DNA of 40,033 nt, taken from UHGV virus genome UHGV-0235137; one strand, given 5' to 3'. This document shows, piece by piece, positions 31,872 to 38,242 of the stretch (position 1 is the stretch's first letter; the number at the start of each line of letters is the position of its first letter). Origin of the DNA: a virus. Under the pieces are notes generated by a model that saw nothing but the letters and a program-made list of their open reading frames with translations, was not told the DNA's origin and did not search any database. A program made the position numbers and the translations under genes.

Positions 31872-32229
31872 AGATTTTATAGCTTATTTTGGCAGATTTT
31901 TTATAAGGATACTGCCATCCTTCCATACCAGACCACACCATGCAAAACCAGACTTCACATCACCCTACCGTGCAATACATCACTTAAAAACCCTCTTAGA
32001 AGACTCTTAAGTGATGCTGGTGAGTACACGTTGGTTTATGCTGCTCAGTATACTCACCAAATTTTCTATGTCAACAACTTTATATAAAAGCCCTGATAGC
32101 TATATGTGTTACAAAACAAAAGATTGTGAACAAAACACCCATTGCAAAGGATGTGTTCAAAAGTTTACTTGTGATGTAAGACAATACAAAGACAACTAAT
32201 GCAAACAGAATGATTGTGCTTAACATAGT

Positions 32230-33333
32230 TTACTCATAATCCCTAATAACTAGCCCAACAGGGAACTGTAAAGAACCCTTACGAGTCATCTTCTGGAACT
32301 GAACCGTTAGAGGCTTCCCGATAAACTCTTCAGGATGCTCAGCAAGATACTGTTTCTTCTCACGAGTAGTCTTCCATGAGACATCTACAAAGACGTTAGG
32401 AAGAGTCTCTACAACGAACTTGCCATGACCACGCTTATCAGTCTTTACACCAGTCACTTTAAACTCTTCAGTGTGCATCTTCTTGTGCTTAATCAAGAAG
32501 TATGAACGGTGACAACACTCATAGAAGGAGTCTTCAGAGATTGAACGGTACATTGCACCTTCAAACTTAGCCTCAACCCACTTATCATGAGCTTCATCAA
32601 ACTCTTCCCAAGAATTTACACGACGAGACTTAACAGGAACAACTTTACAGCCGTCTCTAAAGTCATTCAATGGTGAAGTCTCAATAATATCTCTACGCTC
32701 AGGCCATGTCTTAGTACTGTCACAGATATCGTACCAGTAAAACTTGAGCAAGTGTCTGTCAGAATTGTCTTCATTTTTAATCATAGAGACAATATCTTCT
32801 AAGTCCCACCCATGAGCATAAATCTCACCATCAAATTCATCAACATCTTTGTGGAGCCTTAACATTGCCATAATGTCAGGTATTAGTTCAGTAGGGATTT
32901 TGTAAACAGTATTTTCACGAGAGTATGCTGTGAATACACTGCCAATACTTAAGTGCCTTGAAATCCTACAACGGACACCATCAAGTTTCGGTTGAGCATC
33001 AGCAGGGAACTTCAGATACTTTGCATGGCTAACCTTTGCAGCATCATGAGCAAGCTGTACACCTACCTTTTCAGTATTCTGTGCAGACTCTTTTGTGTAA
33101 GCATAACCTTTACGGTCAACTTGCTTTTTATACTTAGCAGCAACTTCAAAGAGAGCTTGCTGCTCAGCGTTACGCTCATTCTTTTTACCGATGTTTTTAG
33201 GTTCTGCTGTATACTCTTCAAACATCATCTTGCCATTTTCTTTACCGTAGGTTGTAATAACTTTGTCACCTACAGCAACACATGACCAGACGTTAAAAGA
33301 GCCGTCTTTATTTTGTTTGTATAGAATTGTCAT
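32230..33333 (-). CDS. ATP-dependent DNA ligase
   Basis: adenylation motif I KLDGVR (PKLDGVRCR); size about 367 aa as in T7-type phage ligases. Confidence 0.9.
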   Translation of the reverse strand: MTILYKQNKDGSFNVWSCVAVGDKVITTYGKENGKMMFEEYTAEPKNIGKKNERNAEQQALFEVAAKYKKQVDRKGYAYTKESAQNTEKVGVQLAHDAAKVSHAKYLKFPADAQPKLDGVRCRISRHLSIGSVFTAYSRENTVYKIPTELIPDIMAMLRLHKDVDEFDGEIYAHGWDLEDIVSMIKNEDNSDRHLLKFYWYDICDSTKTWPERRDIIETSPLNDFRDGCKVVPVKSRRVNSWEEFDEAHDKWVEAKFEGAMYRSISEDSFYECCHRSYFLIKHKKMHTEEFKVTGVKTDKRGHGKFVVETLPNVFVDVSWKTTREKKQYLAEHPEEFIGKPLTVQFQKMTRKGSLQFPVGLVIRDYE

Positions 33334-33412
33334 TTATTTCTTGCCTCACAAGCTATACACCCTTTTGAATAGAATGAGTGCCAATCGCACCCACCAAAAT
33401 CTTCTTTGATGA

Positions 33413-33661
33413 TTAAATTGGATTTGTTGCTTTCTTGTATCTTTCGTAGTAATCTAAACATTTTTCATCCATATCGGCTATATACTGTTCGTAGTAATCG
33501 TCTATTCGTGGCTTCACAAAGGATGCTTTTGCCTTACAATAGTACTCCTCATAGGAGTAATTATTCATCCAAGAATTAAAAAGTAGTATGTTTTCGCCAC
33601 GCTTTGGTGGCATTCTTAAACTTTTCTTGTATAATTCCTTCATTTCTTGAGTTATCTTCAT
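33413..33661 (-). CDS. hypothetical protein
   Basis: 82-aa ORF. Confidence 0.5.
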   Translation of the reverse strand: MKITQEMKELYKKSLRMPPKRGENILLFNSWMNNYSYEEYYCKAKASFVKPRIDDYYEQYIADMDEKCLDYYERYKKATNPI

Positions 33662-33861
33662 TGCATATCCTTAATCTTACCTAAGAACCTTACACCACAA
33701 TTATTACACTCGTATATGTCTAAATTTGTGTTATCAGGTTTATGAAAACAGTTTGACCCACAACGACACCGGAATAGTTTACCATCAACACGGAGAATAA
33801 ATGTTTCAAGCTCACCCTCTTCTGTAAGGACGGCGTTCTTAAACTTATCTTCTACAGTCAT
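33658..33861 (-). CDS. small zinc-ribbon protein (hypothetical)
   Basis: CRCGSNC ... CNNCG cysteine pairs. Confidence 0.5.
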   Translation of the reverse strand: MTVEDKFKNAVLTEEGELETFILRVDGKLFRCRCGSNCFHKPDNTNLDIYECNNCGVRFLGKIKDMQ

Positions 33862-34064
33862 TTTCTCTTACCACCAATCTCTACGTCGATAACCTGAACA
33901 TCACCAGCAACATCAAACTTATGAATGATGCTTCCCACAGTGTAAGTCCAACCCTCGATTCGAACCAACTCACCTTCTCGTGGGACGATTGGATTACGTT
34001 GAGCTACGGTTGTAGTGGAGTGAACAACATCATAACAATAGATATAGTTTACTAGGACTTCCAT
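33858..34064 (-). CDS. hypothetical protein
   Basis: ORF-track 33858-34163 trimmed to the internal ATG at 34064, which has a GAGGT RBS and removes the overlap with the lipoprotein gene. Confidence 0.45.
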   Translation of the reverse strand: MEVLVNYIYCYDVVHSTTTVAQRNPIVPREGELVRIEGWTYTVGSIIHKFDVAGDVQVIDVEIGGKRK

Positions 34065-34074
34065 CGTGAAAACC

Positions 34075-34311
34075 TCACTCAATAACCGTAGTATGTGATT
34101 GACCATTTTTACCATATTTATAAGATGTTGTTGTTTGAGAGTTTGGACATCTGACAACAACAATATCTATGCTTACAGTATCTCCATATAGCTTATAGAC
34201 CTTGCAATCTTGCATCTCTGGTGGGAGGCTATAAGAAGCATTCTTATCTTCATAAGAAGGGTTACAACCAGTTAGAAAAATAACACCAAGTGCAATTATT
34301 ACTTTCCACAT
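34075..34311 (-). CDS. small lipoprotein (signal peptide with lipobox LTGC)
   Basis: N-terminus MWKVIIALGVIFLTGC: positively charged start, hydrophobic core, L-T-G-C lipobox. Confidence 0.6.
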   Translation of the reverse strand: MWKVIIALGVIFLTGCNPSYEDKNASYSLPPEMQDCKVYKLYGDTVSIDIVVVRCPNSQTTTSYKYGKNGQSHTTVIE

Positions 34312-34326
34312 AACACATCTCCTGTT

Positions 34327-34482
34327 TTATTGTTCACGATGTTCTACTTCTCTGTATGTACGCCGGTAGTTTATGATGAGAGGTGCTAATTCGTTGCTTT
34401 TAACATTAGAACGTAACAATTGCCAATCAAAACCTTTGGCGACTCTGCCATATAAATTGAAAAACTTTGCTTTGCGTTTCAT
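34327..34482 (-). CDS. unlisted small ORF (51 aa), candidate
   Basis: hand translation MKRKAKFFNLYGRVAKGFDWQLLRSNVKSNELAPLIINYRRTYREVEHREQ; GGAG RBS 9 nt upstream; below ORF-track length cutoff. Confidence 0.35.
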   Translation of the reverse strand: MKRKAKFFNLYGRVAKGFDWQLLRSNVKSNELAPLIINYRRTYREVEHREQ

Positions 34483-34500
34483 TTTTGGTGTCTCCAATAC

Positions 34501-34713
34501 TCAAAAGTTAATATTAATACGTTCACCCTTAAGGACTCCTGTACGGTCTCTTGCAATCTTACCGTCAACAATGAGGATATGCGCAGACTTTAAAGATTCA
34601 CTATTAAAACCTTTTACGAACTTACTAGGCATCACCACAATAAGCATCTCTTGAATCAACTCTGGAGTATAGCAATTGTCGTGAAGTTGCTGAATAACGT
34701 CTGCAAGTGTCAT
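34501..34713 (-). CDS. hypothetical protein
   Basis: ORF-track 34501-34728 trimmed to the ATG at 34713, preceded by GGAG and overlapping the upstream stop in ATGA. Confidence 0.5.
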   Translation of the reverse strand: MTLADVIQQLHDNCYTPELIQEMLIVVMPSKFVKGFNSESLKSAHILIVDGKIARDRTGVLKGERININF

Positions 34714-34919
34714 TTTTGATGTCTCCAATATTCAATGTCAATAAGTTCTTGTGCAATGCTTTTCAGATTACCTTTCAAGAAAACCTTCTCAGAACCTGAA
34801 AGAGATGAATTGTCAATTAACCTGTTCATTCTCTCAAACAACTTCTGTTTACGATTCTTGATAGTTTCCTTTGAAGCACCTTTCATCATTGCTGCATGGG
34901 TTCTTCCACGGTGGCTCAT
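34710..34919 (-). CDS. hypothetical small basic protein
   Basis: 69-aa ORF. Confidence 0.5.
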   Translation of the reverse strand: MSHRGRTHAAMMKGASKETIKNRKQKLFERMNRLIDNSSLSGSEKVFLKGNLKSIAQELIDIEYWRHQK

Positions 34920-34970
34920 AAGCCCTCCTATATAAGATATTGTATAAGGTACTCTTCCATGAGCACCTTG

Positions 34971-35483
34971 TCAACTTAGTTTTGCAAACTCTCCGTGGAG
35001 TTTCATAGCAGCTTCACAGTAAGCTTTATGGGCTTCTTCTTCTGTTATGTATGTCCCTATATGCACTGTCTTGCCATTATGGTTAACCTGTGCTTTCCAC
35101 TTACCAGATTTGCTTCTACTTGTACCTTTCAAGTTTTTTGATGTTCTAGGTTGTCCCCTATTAGACATGTTCTGTTCTTTTGTGGCCTCTCTAAGATTGT
35201 TCCAAGCATTATTCAAACCATCTCCATCTTTGTGGTCAATGTGTTTATCAGGCCACTTACCTGTCATCCAGAACCAAGCAATTCGGTGATTACCTGTTCT
35301 GTATCCTAGAATCTGTGTGTGCATATACACACCAGACCTTGTGCGCTTGATTGCTCCGGCTTTGCTTCCAATAACCACTCTACTACTATGTGGAGGTCTT
35401 CCAATCCATGTTAAGACCCCTGTTTCGGGGTCATAGTCTAACCAAGATTTTAACTGTTCATGTGTGAATCCACAATCCCGCAT
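34971..35483 (-). CDS. HNH homing endonuclease with AP2-like DNA-binding domain
   Basis: HIDHKDGDGLNNAWNNLREAT HNH motif; C-terminal GKWKAQV...HIGTY...EEAHKAY AP2-like segment; directly downstream of the polymerase gene. Confidence 0.8.
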   Translation of the reverse strand: MRDCGFTHEQLKSWLDYDPETGVLTWIGRPPHSSRVVIGSKAGAIKRTRSGVYMHTQILGYRTGNHRIAWFWMTGKWPDKHIDHKDGDGLNNAWNNLREATKEQNMSNRGQPRTSKNLKGTSRSKSGKWKAQVNHNGKTVHIGTYITEEEAHKAYCEAAMKLHGEFAKLS

Positions 35484-38182
35484 CAGTGTACCTCATACCA
35501 CGATTTACCAACCTTACCAGTACCTGTAACAAGCGTTTCTTTCTTAAGACCTAAGTTCTTAGAAGCTTGTCCATAATACCAGTCAGTAACTGCTTTCACA
35601 TCTGCCGTCATACTTTCTGGACATTCCCAACTCGTCTCATCGTGATATGCGCAGAGCAAACGAGCACCAATAGCTGGTTGACGACCATTCAACTTCATCA
35701 AACCTTCGTCAATCATACGACGACAAGCAAGGTTAATTGCCTCATTTTGAATCTGAGCCTCTGAACCCATCAAAAGATAGTTCAACAGTTTGTGTGGAGA
35801 TTTACACCACAACCAAGCTCCAGCAACCTTTACAAAACCACCTTTAGAGATTGCAGCAGTCTTACCAAACACCTCTTCAAGTGCCTTCTTAGTTGCTTTG
35901 TAGTCAGCTTCCAAGTCATCTAGCAGCTTCTTAATCTTAGGCAAACGGATAAAGTAAGTCTGCTTAGTCAGTGCACCTTCCTGAGTAGTTGCAGCTTTAA
36001 TCGTCTTAGCAAACTTCTCATCACCTGCACCGAACAGCAGTGCATAGATACCATTCTTAGCTTTCTTACGACCCTTGCTAATCTCATGGAGAAGGTTCTC
36101 ATCCTGAGTAGCTCGACAAGTCAAGATATCCTGCTCATCATTCAAGCTAAAGTAAATACTGTTCAGTGTGTGTGCATCAGTCCCTGAATAGACAACGTAA
36201 AGGTCGTTCTCAGAGTCATAGCGAAGGTACTTATCAATCTCTGGGTTGAGGTACTCATCAAAGTGTTTGCAGTAATAGCGTCCATCTTCTTGACGAATAA
36301 ACTCAATCTCTTCTTTACCTTGCGTTACCGCTTTGGTGAAGTCTTTGTCACCCATAAAGTTACAAAGAAGAACTAGCTGGGCTGAGTTCATGTCTACAGA
36401 GACAACGTTAGTACCTTCTTCACAAATCCACACTGCCCTCATTGGTTCCCCATAGACAGCAGCACCAGACGGTACGTTTACAATACCATATTGTGTCATA
36501 CGTCCAGTTGAAGTACCAAACACCATTGCACCAGCACTAAGGCGACCATCAGGACGAATCTGGTTCAACCAACCTTTTTCATCATCCTTTGAGTTCTCAA
36601 TAGTTCTGCGTCGGTGCATCAAAGTATAGTACTTAGCAATTTTCTGTCCAAGCTCACCTTCAATCGTATCATAAGATGACTCAGTAAGTTTTGGTGAAGT
36701 ACGGATTAAGCAAGGTTCAAGCAAATCTGTGTACTTCTTAACAGACCAGTTATGCTCAATGTACTGGACACCTTCATGTTCAACATAACTCAAACCACAC
36801 CGTTCAACCATCTCCTGCCATTTAGGATGCTTTGTAATCATCTTTTTGTTGTCTTTGAAGCGACAAACCTTAACAGGACGACCATCAGAGTCTTTCTTAT
36901 AGTTCCAGTCATCTGGAATCCAACCAACTGATTTCAAGTAGTCTTTAACAACTGCTACCTGAGTCATACGAGAAACTTCGAACTCAATTGGTGTATATGG
37001 TGCATCAATCAAACCTGTGTAGCGACTTGACTCAAGTTCAAAGTGGTTAACAACATGACTGTTATAGTACTTCACAGTTTTAACTGTTTTTACTGGCTTC
37101 CAGTCTTTGCATTTCTTACCAATCTTTGCGTTCAACTCATTGCAAATTGCACGAGCATCCTTCATTGCTACAAAGCCTTCCTTGTACTCTTCACCAGTTA
37201 CAGAGTTGGTTGGTGTATAGCAATTCCGCTTTTCAATGTTAAAAATCTTGGTAGTTGGTTTACCAAATGGCTTGATTTCATATGTCTGCATCTCACCATT
37301 ACGTACCTGCTGACGATACTTTGTCTTAGGGTACTTAGTAATTCTCTTCAGTCCATCTGCATGACCGAATGCTTCAACATACTCATTCCAAGCTTTTGCA
37401 AATTCTTCTCCAGTAACTTTACCTTTGGTCTTAATAGTTGGTGGAAGGTGTGGTTCAACTTCTGAAGCAAGCTCATTAGTCAACTTGTCAAGTTCCTTTA
37501 CATGGAACTCCATAAGTTCTTTATCAGCTTTCCAACCATTAATAGCTTGTTGACTCATCCAGAAAGATGTTTCTTTAGCTCGCATGTAGGTTTCATAAGT
37601 ATCTACGCCACACTTCTTCAGCTTAAGATATTCATTATCCAGTGCACGTTTAGTTTTGGCGTTAATACGGATATCTTCCACAACACGAGTGAATATTTCT
37701 GCATTCCACACACCCCAATGTTCAATCTCTGGTTTACGGACACCAACACGAGCACCCCATGCTGCCAAGCCATGAGCACCCTTATAGCCCTTTGGAGTTG
37801 GTCTATCCATCCACTGAACACGAGACTGGATAAGAGAATCCTGAAAGAAATTACTCCACGGCTTACACTTTGGATTATCAAAGTTCCACAAATCAGGTGC
37901 AATGTGATTGAAAACCCACCAGTCATATCCCAGACCATTATGGATGCAAAGTCGTTTTGCCTTTAACGCAAACTCAACACCTTCACGCAAGCCACCCTTA
38001 ATGTACTTGGTATACTTGTGACCGAGGATAGGCTCATCTGTAAAGACCCATACAGGTGGCTCTTCATCGTCAGATTTATAGTCTGCGAAAGCCATTACGT
38101 GCACTTTAGTGAACTCAAGGAGTAAACCATCAGTTTCTGTATCACCAACTAAATGTAAGTTTTTAAAATCTACGTTTTCCAT
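35483..38182 (-). CDS. DNA polymerase, family A (Pol I / T7 gp5-like) with 3'-5' exonuclease domain
   Basis: exo motif DTETDG; motif A-like SVDMNSAQL; motif B-like KKAKNGIYALLFGAG; motif C YHDE; start set at the ATG (38182) preceded by AGGGAG. Confidence 0.9.
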   Translation of the reverse strand: MENVDFKNLHLVGDTETDGLLLEFTKVHVMAFADYKSDDEEPPVWVFTDEPILGHKYTKYIKGGLREGVEFALKAKRLCIHNGLGYDWWVFNHIAPDLWNFDNPKCKPWSNFFQDSLIQSRVQWMDRPTPKGYKGAHGLAAWGARVGVRKPEIEHWGVWNAEIFTRVVEDIRINAKTKRALDNEYLKLKKCGVDTYETYMRAKETSFWMSQQAINGWKADKELMEFHVKELDKLTNELASEVEPHLPPTIKTKGKVTGEEFAKAWNEYVEAFGHADGLKRITKYPKTKYRQQVRNGEMQTYEIKPFGKPTTKIFNIEKRNCYTPTNSVTGEEYKEGFVAMKDARAICNELNAKIGKKCKDWKPVKTVKTVKYYNSHVVNHFELESSRYTGLIDAPYTPIEFEVSRMTQVAVVKDYLKSVGWIPDDWNYKKDSDGRPVKVCRFKDNKKMITKHPKWQEMVERCGLSYVEHEGVQYIEHNWSVKKYTDLLEPCLIRTSPKLTESSYDTIEGELGQKIAKYYTLMHRRRTIENSKDDEKGWLNQIRPDGRLSAGAMVFGTSTGRMTQYGIVNVPSGAAVYGEPMRAVWICEEGTNVVSVDMNSAQLVLLCNFMGDKDFTKAVTQGKEEIEFIRQEDGRYYCKHFDEYLNPEIDKYLRYDSENDLYVVYSGTDAHTLNSIYFSLNDEQDILTCRATQDENLLHEISKGRKKAKNGIYALLFGAGDEKFAKTIKAATTQEGALTKQTYFIRLPKIKKLLDDLEADYKATKKALEEVFGKTAAISKGGFVKVAGAWLWCKSPHKLLNYLLMGSEAQIQNEAINLACRRMIDEGLMKLNGRQPAIGARLLCAYHDETSWECPESMTADVKAVTDWYYGQASKNLGLKKETLVTGTGKVGKSWYEVH

Positions 38183-38242
38183 TTTTACTCCCTCTAAAAT
38201 CATTAACCTCATACATTACTGCAAAAAATTATAAAAAGCAAG

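Follow-up and report, generated by a model that had tools for sequence, protein, structure and literature searches.

A compact run of eight small genes within the leftward replication and nucleotide-metabolism operon of a Felixounavirus (a Felix O1-like myovirus) is probably a mosaic array of independently exchangeable accessory genes, whose products would be small binding proteins or modulators of two functional classes. All eight ORFs are real protein-coding genes under purifying selection. The cluster is an ordinary, already catalogued block, that of Felix O1 ORF89-94, plus two rarer genes. The genome is UHGV-0235137, and "the window" refers to the whole 40,033-nucleotide stretch that was analysed. 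The original prediction for positions 33413-34919, a group of seven small early genes with host-takeover and anti-defence roles, is partly supported.

Eight genes between polymerase and ligase

The cluster is embedded in an operon that runs from polymerase through ligase to thymidylate synthase. Genes occur in the order polymerase, HNH, A-B-C-D-E-F-G-H and ligase, and the unit then continues to DHFR and thymidylate synthase. The features are:

35483-38212, minus strand: DNA polymerase, first gene of the leftward unit
34971-35483, minus strand: HNH-AP2 homing endonuclease, upstream flank
34710-34919, minus strand: ORF A, 69 aa; phrog_5180, Felix O1 ORF94
34707-34735, minus strand: 29-nt direct repeat, copy 2; covers the 3' end of A and the SD and start of B
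34501-34713, minus strand: ORF B, 70 aa; phrog_4230, Felix O1 ORF93
34476-34504, minus strand: 29-nt direct repeat, copy 1; covers the SD and start of C
34327-34482, minus strand: ORF C, 51 aa; phrog_2381, allele of Felix O1 ORF92
34075-34311, minus strand: ORF D, predicted 78-aa lipoprotein precursor; phrog_902, Felix O1 ORF91
33858-34064, minus strand: ORF E, 68 aa, ATG at 34064; phrog_4427, Felix O1 ORF90
33658-33861, minus strand: ORF F, 67 aa, putative zinc-binding protein; phrog_5768, recombinant allele of Felix O1 ORF89
33413-33661, minus strand: ORF G, 82 aa, rare accessory gene; phrog_32421
33330-33461, minus strand: ORF H, 43-aa mini-gene; overlaps G and ligase
32230-33333, minus strand: ATP-dependent DNA ligase, downstream flank; in the same transcription unit as the cluster

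ORFs A to G (51-82 aa) tile 98.8% of 33413-34919. Under a first-order Markov null (n = 2000), the mean number of ORFs of at least 50 aa was 1.08 and the maximum was 5, and seven were reached in 0 of 2000 simulations. Each of the seven has an SD-like sequence upstream and a full-length PHROG match, and dN/dS values range from 0 to 0.4, well below 1 for every ORF. The seven predicted genes are thus borne out where they were placed, as are their ligase and HNH-AP2 endonuclease flanks and their tight packing with translational coupling: ATGA overlaps occur at the A/B, E/F and F/G junctions, and the remaining gaps are 10-18 nt. The count was one gene short, as it missed ORF H. The 51-aa ORF C, thought to be unlisted, is real (dN/dS 0.03-0.16) but is already annotated in many relatives.

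ORF H fills the apparent gap before the ligase. A 49-nt stretch is shared, in a different frame, with the 3' end of G, and the H stop overlaps the ligase ATG (ATGA). The C-terminal 27 aa are conserved (GGC-x-WH-x6-C-x2-C) and contain the Cys/His pattern C-x2-H...C-x2-C. The gene occurs in 35 phage records, including a CDS of 32 aa in Michonne and one of 43 aa in EC6, and is absent from Felix O1 and VSe11. Its pN/pS is 0.27 in its own frame vs 1.0-1.15 in the other two, and 28 of 50 substitutions fall at third codon positions. Given how short these ORFs are, and that H overlaps G, some might be suspected to be non-coding spacer that is open by chance. This is hardly credible in view of a tiling far above that of the simulations, dN/dS well below 1 throughout, the frame specificity of the H signal, conserved homologues in the hundreds, and the detection of three Felix O1 homologues by RT-PCR. 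For A to G, the idea is effectively refuted.

The two copies of the 29-nt direct repeat are 90% identical, where the chance expectation is 0 matches. A scan of the cluster for internal sigma-70 promoters and terminators returned counts at chance level, with no excess.

RT-PCR of Felix O1 showed that ORFs 89, 90 and 93 (the homologues of F, E and B) are transcribed and are maximal at 25 min, peaking together with the polymerase and ligase (ORFs 88 and 96), and genes 96-80 were defined as one transcription unit (PMC3185647). The timing of the Felix O1 homologues is therefore middle rather than early, contrary to the label originally given to the cluster. Nor does the location match the one considered typical of host-takeover genes, as the ORFs lie inside a replication and nucleotide-metabolism operon and not in an immediate-early region. 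From the gene arrangement and the Felix O1 RT-PCR we infer co-transcription, with A to H presumably carried on a long mRNA common to the polymerase and ligase.

Conserved and variable genes

ORFs A to F have counterparts in Felix O1 ORF94 to ORF89 (NP_944953, NP_944952, YP_001504373, NP_944949, NP_944947 and NP_944945, all annotated as hypothetical), in identical order and in the same operon between polymerase/HNH and ligase. Identities are 100% for A, 93% for B, 65% for C, 84% for D, 94% for E and 74% for F. Between F and ligase the window has two genes more than Felix O1, G and H, and it differs further in the recombinant C-terminal half of F and in an alternative C allele. It shares an F allele (97% identity), G (46-51%) and H with EC6/DE17-type Felixounavirus genomes, where the order is F-G-H-F'-ligase; the window lacks F', a second zinc-ribbon paralogue, so that H abuts the ligase directly. 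EC6 has neither A nor the HNH gene and carries another ORF in place of D, and the HNH-AP2 endonuclease site is polymorphic among relatives. Mooglevirus (Michonne gp38-gp45) carries a paralogue of B (B') upstream of A as well as other inserts, and H is annotated in Michonne as the 32-aa CDS coupled to ligase. Comparison with the accessory regions of related phages, suggested as a check on the original prediction, thus reveals a mosaic locus, with G in 12 phage records and F in three alleles.

The steadiest members are A and E, which are almost invariant among relatives and under strong purifying selection. ORF A is basic (pI 10.3) with a strong SD (AGGAGG) and dN/dS of 0-0.06. It occurs in 285 phage records, in 110 of them at ≥99% identity, with homologues of about 55% identity in Kolesnikvirus and about 50% in the T4-like Karamvirus CC31. 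ORF E occurs in 257 records, from Felixounavirus and Mooglevirus only and mostly at 95-100% identity (dN/dS 0-0.19). ORF C, also basic (pI 10.4), is found in 242 phage records that form two allele groups. Treating C and D as a module is not warranted, as their distant homologues in different phage groups, the Stephanstirmvirinae and Vequintavirinae, are not adjacent.

ORF B starts at the ATG at 34713, within the ATGA overlap with the stop of A, and the B' paralogues in DE17, Moogle and Michonne are 36-44% identical to it. The receptor of Felix O1 is the terminal GlcNAc on the outer core of LPS, built by the enzyme WaaK (RfaK). B and its close orthologues match NCBIfam PRK15484 (lipopolysaccharide N-acetylglucosaminyltransferase) with E = 1.3e-4 to 2.4e-4, residues 4-54 of B aligning with profile positions 122-171 of 380. 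B could on this basis be a diverged fragment or mimic of host WaaK that would disturb LPS core completion, sparing the loss of progeny on infected cells or debris, but we consider this highly improbable. At 20 bits, the match falls far short of the curated 618-bit cut-off for membership in the WaaK/RfaK family (PRK15484, GT4). The five matching proteins are about 90% identical to each other and amount to one observation, and the B' paralogues do not match. There is no Pfam glycosyltransferase match for B and no long glycosyltransferase among the 120 database homologues listed for it, and such a match is unsurprising given the roughly 30 query-by-library combinations tried.

The predicted zinc ribbon corresponds to ORF F, in which the motif CxCx3CxH...CxxC supplies the putative ligands C32, C34, C38, H40, C52 and C55. 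All six are retained without exception in seven homologues with identities as low as 46%, among them those of Chaseviridae and Kolesnikvirus, and provide two conserved Cys/His pairs about 15-20 residues apart, as in zinc ribbons. F reaches no named Pfam zinc-ribbon family (13.7 and 11.8 bits for Zn_ribbon_CSL and DUF7129 vs cut-offs of 30 and 29), and a PDB profile search with its family returned only generic zinc-finger noise (E ≥ 0.05). The 97% allele of the window is restricted to EC6/DE17-type phages, and the C-terminal half is recombinant relative to Felix O1 ORF89. Many F homologues are labelled 'DNA ligase' in GenBank. The protein is 67 aa long with no ligase domain (a nucleotidyltransferase domain with the KxDG motif), and the label is an annotation artefact that spreads from BPS17W1-type annotations. 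Although an F-type gene sits directly upstream of ligase in most Felixounaviruses, the homologues in Fifi44 and vEam_S_24 (Chaseviridae, Kolesnikvirus) stand alone, far from any ligase, and we therefore reject both F as a ligase and a functional link between the two.

ORF G, rich in Tyr, Lys and Glu, is confined to 12 phage records among about 260 related genomes. The best identity is 79%, in L27 (dN/dS 0.11), and the others are 46-51%; the exact sequence occurs on 18 public contigs. A resemblance to T4 UvsY (E = 0.012 with the single sequence) did not persist, as a four-member profile gave no PDB match at E ≤ 5.

Scans of the cluster ORFs against Pfam, NCBIfam, PADLOC and PHROG produced matches only to PHROG families without assigned function, apart from a single weak PADLOC match for A (E = 0.0036, 13.9 bits). 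PDB searches with the seven ORFs returned nothing below E = 0.0025, matches at that level being generic zinc fingers, and no significant match came from PDB searches with profiles of the D, G and F families. The expectation that the ORFs carry no recognisable enzymatic motif stands: no catalytic or other recognisable domain was found by Pfam, NCBIfam, PADLOC or PDB.

It is worth asking whether the genes are instead replication accessory factors for the flanking polymerase and ligase, with F and H, for example, as zinc-binding cofactors that would serve the minimal ATP-dependent ligase. The position between these genes, the shared expression class in Felix O1, the basic character of A and C, the frequent placement of F-type genes before ligase, and the translational coupling of H to ligase, or to the F' that precedes it, among relatives are all consistent with this. 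However, L27 and Moogle have no F, Felix O1 and VSe11 have no H, the F homologues of Chaseviridae and Kolesnikvirus are remote from ligase, and the ligase label on F homologues was propagated without a ligase motif. D, as a predicted exported protein, cannot act on replication. None of the ORFs matches a known replication accessory protein, a finding that would have counted against the original prediction had it held for all of them, and the UvsY hint for G was lost with the profile. A replication role for the cluster as a whole is thus quite improbable. Within the mosaic accessory array that we favour, F and H are putative mini zinc-binding proteins that cluster by the ligase and are not tied to it.

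A predicted lipoprotein family

ORF D, which accounts for the predicted lipoprotein, is the sole cluster ORF with a hydrophobic N-terminus. This region (M-W-K-VIIALGVIFL-TG-C16) resembles a signal peptide with the lipobox LTG-C16 and Asn at +2, and it combines the charged N-terminus, hydrophobic core and lipobox within about 25 residues that characterize lipoprotein precursors. Two further cysteines, C36 and C55, are invariant. The lipobox (pattern [LVI][ASTVI][GAS]C) is present in 133 of the 148 top representatives of the family, and 53 diverse aligned members retain it together with all three invariant cysteines. The conserved motif is Y-x-LP-x-EL-x-DCK...VVRCPNS-x-TTT...GK, with one predicted disulfide.

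The family comprises 587 phage records and 657 clusters at 50% identity among unrelated virulent phages, ranging over Demerecviridae, Vequintavirinae, jumbo phages and Ounavirinae, always within small-ORF clusters. The carriers are virulent phages of Gammaproteobacteria (Felixounavirus, T5-like Vibrio phages, rV5-like phages and jumbo phages), and the homologue in a T5-like Vibrio phage lies in an early small-ORF cluster near ligase. Precomputed tags assign PF16225 (DUF4884) to close and distant D homologues, and NCBI names one phage homologue 'DUF4884 domain-containing protein'; hmmscan with a local Pfam-A copy gave no PF16225 match for D or the 53 family members, even at E ≤ 10. AF2 models D, with moderate confidence (pLDDT 71), as a small beta sheet.

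In size (a 78-aa precursor), signal peptide II features and lipobox, D is similar to T5 Llp, phi80/N15 Cor and lambda Rz1, and its mature domain also carries two cysteines. The resemblance is limited to that of a phage lipoprotein predicted for the envelope. No similarity in sequence or fold to Llp/Cor-type superinfection-exclusion lipoproteins was found by PDB sequence search with D alone, with a profile of the 53 members, or by Foldseek of the model against the PDB (best E 0.37, with no Llp). The llp and cor genes adjoin the gene for a receptor-binding protein, whereas D is not beside a receptor-binding or tail-fibre gene and lies here between polymerase and ligase. The receptor of Felix O1-type phages is LPS and not FhuA, which leaves an Llp-like mechanism without an evident target among outer-membrane proteins. 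We also rejected D as an o-spanin. The Rz1 gene lies within or beside an i-spanin gene or lysis cassette. This is not so for D, whose neighbours C and E lack any hydrophobic segment and whose surroundings are replication and nucleotide-metabolism genes.

The D product is predicted to be exported, lipid-anchored and disulfide-bonded, and Asn at +2 points to anchoring in the outer membrane, on its inner leaflet. It would act in the periplasm on an envelope component, in superinfection exclusion or envelope protection.

Two candidate functional classes

Conservation patterns are the basis on which we suggest that the proteins of the array divide into two classes. One class, the near-invariant A and E and for the most part B and C, most likely works in the development of the phage itself, for instance as nucleic-acid-associated or replisome- or transcription-associated factors, A and C being very basic. 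D, F, G and H, variable in allele or presence, most likely mediate interactions with the host or competitors. EC6 lacks A, and even the conserved class is therefore dispensable in at least one isolate.

Could the whole cluster be a host-takeover or anti-defence island, each protein inhibiting a host defence or process early in infection? In favour are the small size and non-enzymatic nature of the proteins, the variable presence of G, F, D and A, allele swaps, and the occurrence of homologues of A, C, D and F in similar small-ORF clusters of unrelated phages (CC31, phi92-like, rV5-like, T5-like and Chaseviridae phages). Same-strand runs of small ORFs that vary among close relatives are also typical of the 'hyperplastic' regions of T4-type phages and the 'accessory regions' of Silas et al. 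(bioRxiv 10.1101/2023.04.06.535777). Unlike those variable clusters, however, half of this one (A, E and B) is highly conserved in the genus, and the dN/dS of about 0 for A and E is atypical of arms-race genes. The location in a replication operon and the Felix O1 peak at 25 min, not 5 min, also argue against an island, and PDB searches found no similarity to structurally solved anti-defence or host-takeover proteins, nor PADLOC a convincing one to known components of anti-phage defence systems. The main text of a large accessory-gene screen is silent on Felix O1-type phages, lipoproteins, ligase and zinc, and a literature search found none of A to H among the functionally tested genes of such variable clusters. 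In the literature on Felixounavirus lipoproteins, anti-defence and accessory regions, these genes appear only in the Felix O1 RT-PCR timing. An island comprising all eight genes is unlikely; for the variable genes F, G, H and D only, an anti-defence or host-takeover role is a reasonable prior.

At the present stage, the cluster matters little. Felix O1-type phages are used in the typing of Salmonella and E. coli, in biocontrol and in therapy. For these phages, the analysis provides a corrected map of eight genes, including the 43-aa zinc-knuckle-like mini-gene H coupled to ligase, and flags the wrong 'DNA ligase' label on the putative zinc-binding F. It also ranks candidates: D, from a widespread family of predicted envelope lipoproteins, and the unevenly distributed G, F and H lead for roles in exclusion or anti-defence, and the invariant A and E for core phage biology. 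The D family might, as a tentative and somewhat doubtful proposal, represent a new kind of periplasmic effector by which virulent phages alter the envelope of the infected cell. If so, D would differ in mechanism from Llp, Cor, Sp and Rz1, and may exclude competitors or protect against lysis from without or envelope-based defence.

Small genes within the leftward block

GC skew and the ORF map delimit a leftward (minus-strand) block spanning ~38.2 kb to ~28.3 kb in the window, in the order DNA polymerase, HNH-AP2 endonuclease, small ORFs, ligase, 48-aa hydrophobic ORF, HTH regulator, DHFR and thymidylate synthase. Megablast with window 32200-35500 as query matched 260 phage records (87-94% identity), almost all of them from Felixounavirus, the Felix O1-like myoviruses that infect Escherichia, Salmonella, Shigella and Citrobacter. 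The block matches the Felix O1 ‘genes 96-80’ transcription unit (Whichard et al. 2010, PMC3185647).

Genes from the DNA polymerase to the hydrophobic ORF downstream of the ligase
35483-38212, minus, DNA polymerase, one intact 909-aa ORF
34971-35483, minus, HNH-AP2 homing endonuclease
34710-34919, minus, ORF A, 69 aa
34501-34713, minus, ORF B, 70 aa
34327-34482, minus, ORF C, 51 aa
34075-34311, minus, ORF D, 78 aa, predicted lipoprotein
33858-34064, minus, ORF E, 68 aa
33658-33861, minus, ORF F, 67 aa
33413-33661, minus, ORF G, 82 aa
33330-33461, minus, ORF H, 43 aa, starting within the 3′ end of G in a different frame
32230-33333, minus, ATP-dependent DNA ligase
32080-32226, minus, strongly hydrophobic 48-aa ORF (phrog_22006), directly downstream of the ligase

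The 48-aa ORF likely encodes a small membrane protein. The polymerase, a single intact ORF here, is annotated as several pieces in the relatives VSe11 and EC6, and in VSe11 a CDS labelled ‘endonuclease’ sits between two of the pieces.

The original prediction of seven small, packed, same-strand ORFs at 33413-34919 was correct, far beyond chance. A-G cover 98.8% of the segment, and 0 of 2000 runs of Markov-simulated sequence reached seven ORFs (mean 1.08 of at least 50 aa per strand, maximum 5). The starts are ATG codons that agree with annotated homologues, a GGAG-like Shine-Dalgarno sequence lies upstream of every ORF, and each protein has an end-to-end match to a PHROG, in every case one of unknown function. 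Pairwise Nei-Gojobori dN/dS against relatives is 0-0.06 for A, 0.11-0.38 for B, 0.03-0.16 for C, 0.07-0.20 for D, 0-0.19 for E, 0.05-0.40 for F and 0.11 for G. Frequent translational coupling, also proposed, is borne out by ATGA-type start/stop overlaps at A/B, E/F and F/G; the remaining spacers are short (B-C 18 nt, C-D 15 nt, D-E 10 nt).

The description of these genes as early fits less well. A to F correspond to Felix O1 ORF94, 93, 92, 91, 90 and 89, respectively, and Felix O1 RT-PCR signals for ORFs 88 (ligase), 89 (F), 90 (E), 93 (B) and 96 (polymerase) are all maximal at 25 min, with ORF95 (HNH) maximal at 5 min (Table 3, PMC3185647); ORF96 is detectable within 5 min according to the text of that study. 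This timing indicates replication-class (early-to-middle) rather than immediate-early genes. A scan for promoters and terminators inside the cluster was at chance level.

An eighth gene and the encoded proteins

The 79-nt stretch between G and the ligase is occupied by H rather than empty, and the H stop codon overlaps the ligase ATG. Its conserved part, the last 27 codons (IIKEDFGGCDWHSFYSKGCIACEARNK), occurs in 35 phage records including Mooglevirus, and H is annotated as a 32-aa CDS coupled on both sides in Michonne and as a 43-aa CDS in EC6. Substitutions fall at third codon positions in 28 of 50 cases, and pN/pS is 0.27 in the H frame against 1.0-1.15 in the two others, i.e., frame-specific purifying selection. 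H may form a zinc knuckle, to judge from its conserved C-x2-H-x6-C-x2-C pattern. The exact H sequence has no gene call in a 15-billion-protein collection. DE17 2496-2582 and EC6 2949-3032 differ by one base in an A-run, which places H in frame with the downstream F′ (a paralogue of F) in DE17 only; the difference is due to a genuine H-F′ fusion or to a sequencing error in the homopolymer.

Six Cys/His are invariant in F, a putative zinc-binding protein that matches no named zinc-ribbon family at the required level. Its homologues (61-72 aa) are widely labelled ‘DNA ligase’ (momo_126, DE17 WAX24963.1, BPS17W1, GSP193, Fifi44 gp41), a label rejected as an artefact because the ligase domain is absent and the Chaseviridae and Kolesnikvirus homologues are encoded away from ligase. 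A and C are very basic (pI 10.3 and 10.4). A weak single-sequence match of G to T4 UvsY was lost with a family profile.

Only D has a hydrophobic N-terminus, with an LTG-C16 lipobox and Asn at +2. When 1.84 billion representatives were searched with a profile, 657 D-family clusters were recovered; the lipobox is present in 133 of the 148 top representatives, and 53 aligned members share three invariant Cys (the lipid Cys and two more) and the motif Y-x-LP-x-EL-x-DCK...VVRCPNS-x-TTT...GK. In precomputed annotations the family carries the tag PF16225/DUF4884, a match that the local Pfam scan did not reproduce. The AF2 model (pLDDT 71) shows a linker carrying a small beta sheet and has no PDB relative. 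Elsewhere, the D gene again lies amid small early-type ORFs, away from receptor-binding and lysis genes. The proposal that D/DUF4884 proteins are phage effectors of a novel type acting in the periplasm is tentative and rather doubtful.

B is modeled (AF2, pLDDT 81) as a small alpha/beta domain with an invariant, less ordered C-terminal motif, and fold searches returned no structural relative. B and its close orthologues give a weak yet repeatable match to NCBIfam PRK15484 (E ~2e-4, 20 bits), the LPS GlcNAc transferase WaaK, which completes the Felix O1 receptor. A relationship to WaaK is nevertheless very improbable, given that the cut-off is 618 bits, the matches are non-independent, the B′ paralogues of B give none, and neither the fold searches nor the homologues listed include a significant glycosyltransferase.

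Mosaicism among relatives

The genes differ widely in distribution. A occurs in 285 phage records (110 at ≥99% identity), with homologues in Kolesnikvirus (~55%) and the T4-like Karamvirus CC31/Cronus (~50%), where it sits in a small-ORF cluster of the tRNA region. E (257 records) is mostly 95-100% identical. B (255 records) is restricted to Felixounavirus/Mooglevirus, some of which carry B′ upstream of A, and C (242 records) has two allele groups and weak similarity to the phi92 gp205 N-terminus. D (587 records) is spread over many unrelated virulent phages, F (227 records) has three alleles, and G is found in 12 records (top identity 79%).

G and H are absent from VSe11 and Felix O1, and F from L27. 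DE17 and EC6 share the arrangement F-G-H-F′-ligase; in EC6, A and the HNH gene are missing and a different 84-aa ORF occupies the position of D, and Moogle and Michonne have a B′-A order plus further inserts. The polymerase-to-A slot is itself polymorphic: the HNH-AP2 allele of the window is shared with VSe11 and SeKF_63 (94%), those of Felix O1, momo and L27 are divergent (38-49%), and DE17 and Moogle have B′ there instead of HNH.

The N-terminal two-thirds of F resemble Felix O1 ORF89 and its C-terminus the EC6 type, so the window carries a recombinant allele. A 29-nt direct repeat (90% identical; 34476-34504 and 34707-34735) lies over the SD/start regions of C and B, and thus the last stretch of gene A (…EYWRHQK*) recurs in the B-C spacer, probably as a recombination scar tied to the alternative C allele. 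Close to the 5′ ends of G and F lies a further direct repeat, of 23 nt (87% identical; 33609-33631 and 33832-33854), which could be fortuitous or could provide microhomology for cassette exchange.

The exact G, F, D, C and A protein sequences are already present on public contigs. Felixounavirus sequences also turn up under other names, in the records of Campylobacter phage A126/A132 and Staphylococcus phage SA1 and in a protein assigned to Methanobrevibacter gottschalkii, probably through contaminated or chimeric assemblies in public databases.

Place of the array in the phage

These genes are already known, as hypothetical proteins since publication of the Felix O1 genome and in PHROGs, and neither structure nor organisation sets the cluster apart from what is usual in large virulent phages. 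The reading with the best support is an array of small, apparently non-enzymatic accessory genes, mosaic in composition, that would be part of the replication operon and rely on coupling for their translation. The original prediction, that the whole cluster serves anti-defence or host takeover, is compatible with the variable D, F, G and H, but A and E are conserved and the cluster lies within the replication operon, both of which speak against it as a description of the entire cluster. That F and H are replication cofactors is a weaker rival. Under the mosaic accessory array, and judging from sequence conservation, the near-invariant set (A, E, and largely B and C) probably serves phage development, and the genes that come in different alleles or are present in some relatives only (D, F, G, H) more likely target the host or competitors, with D, the predicted lipoprotein, acting in the envelope.
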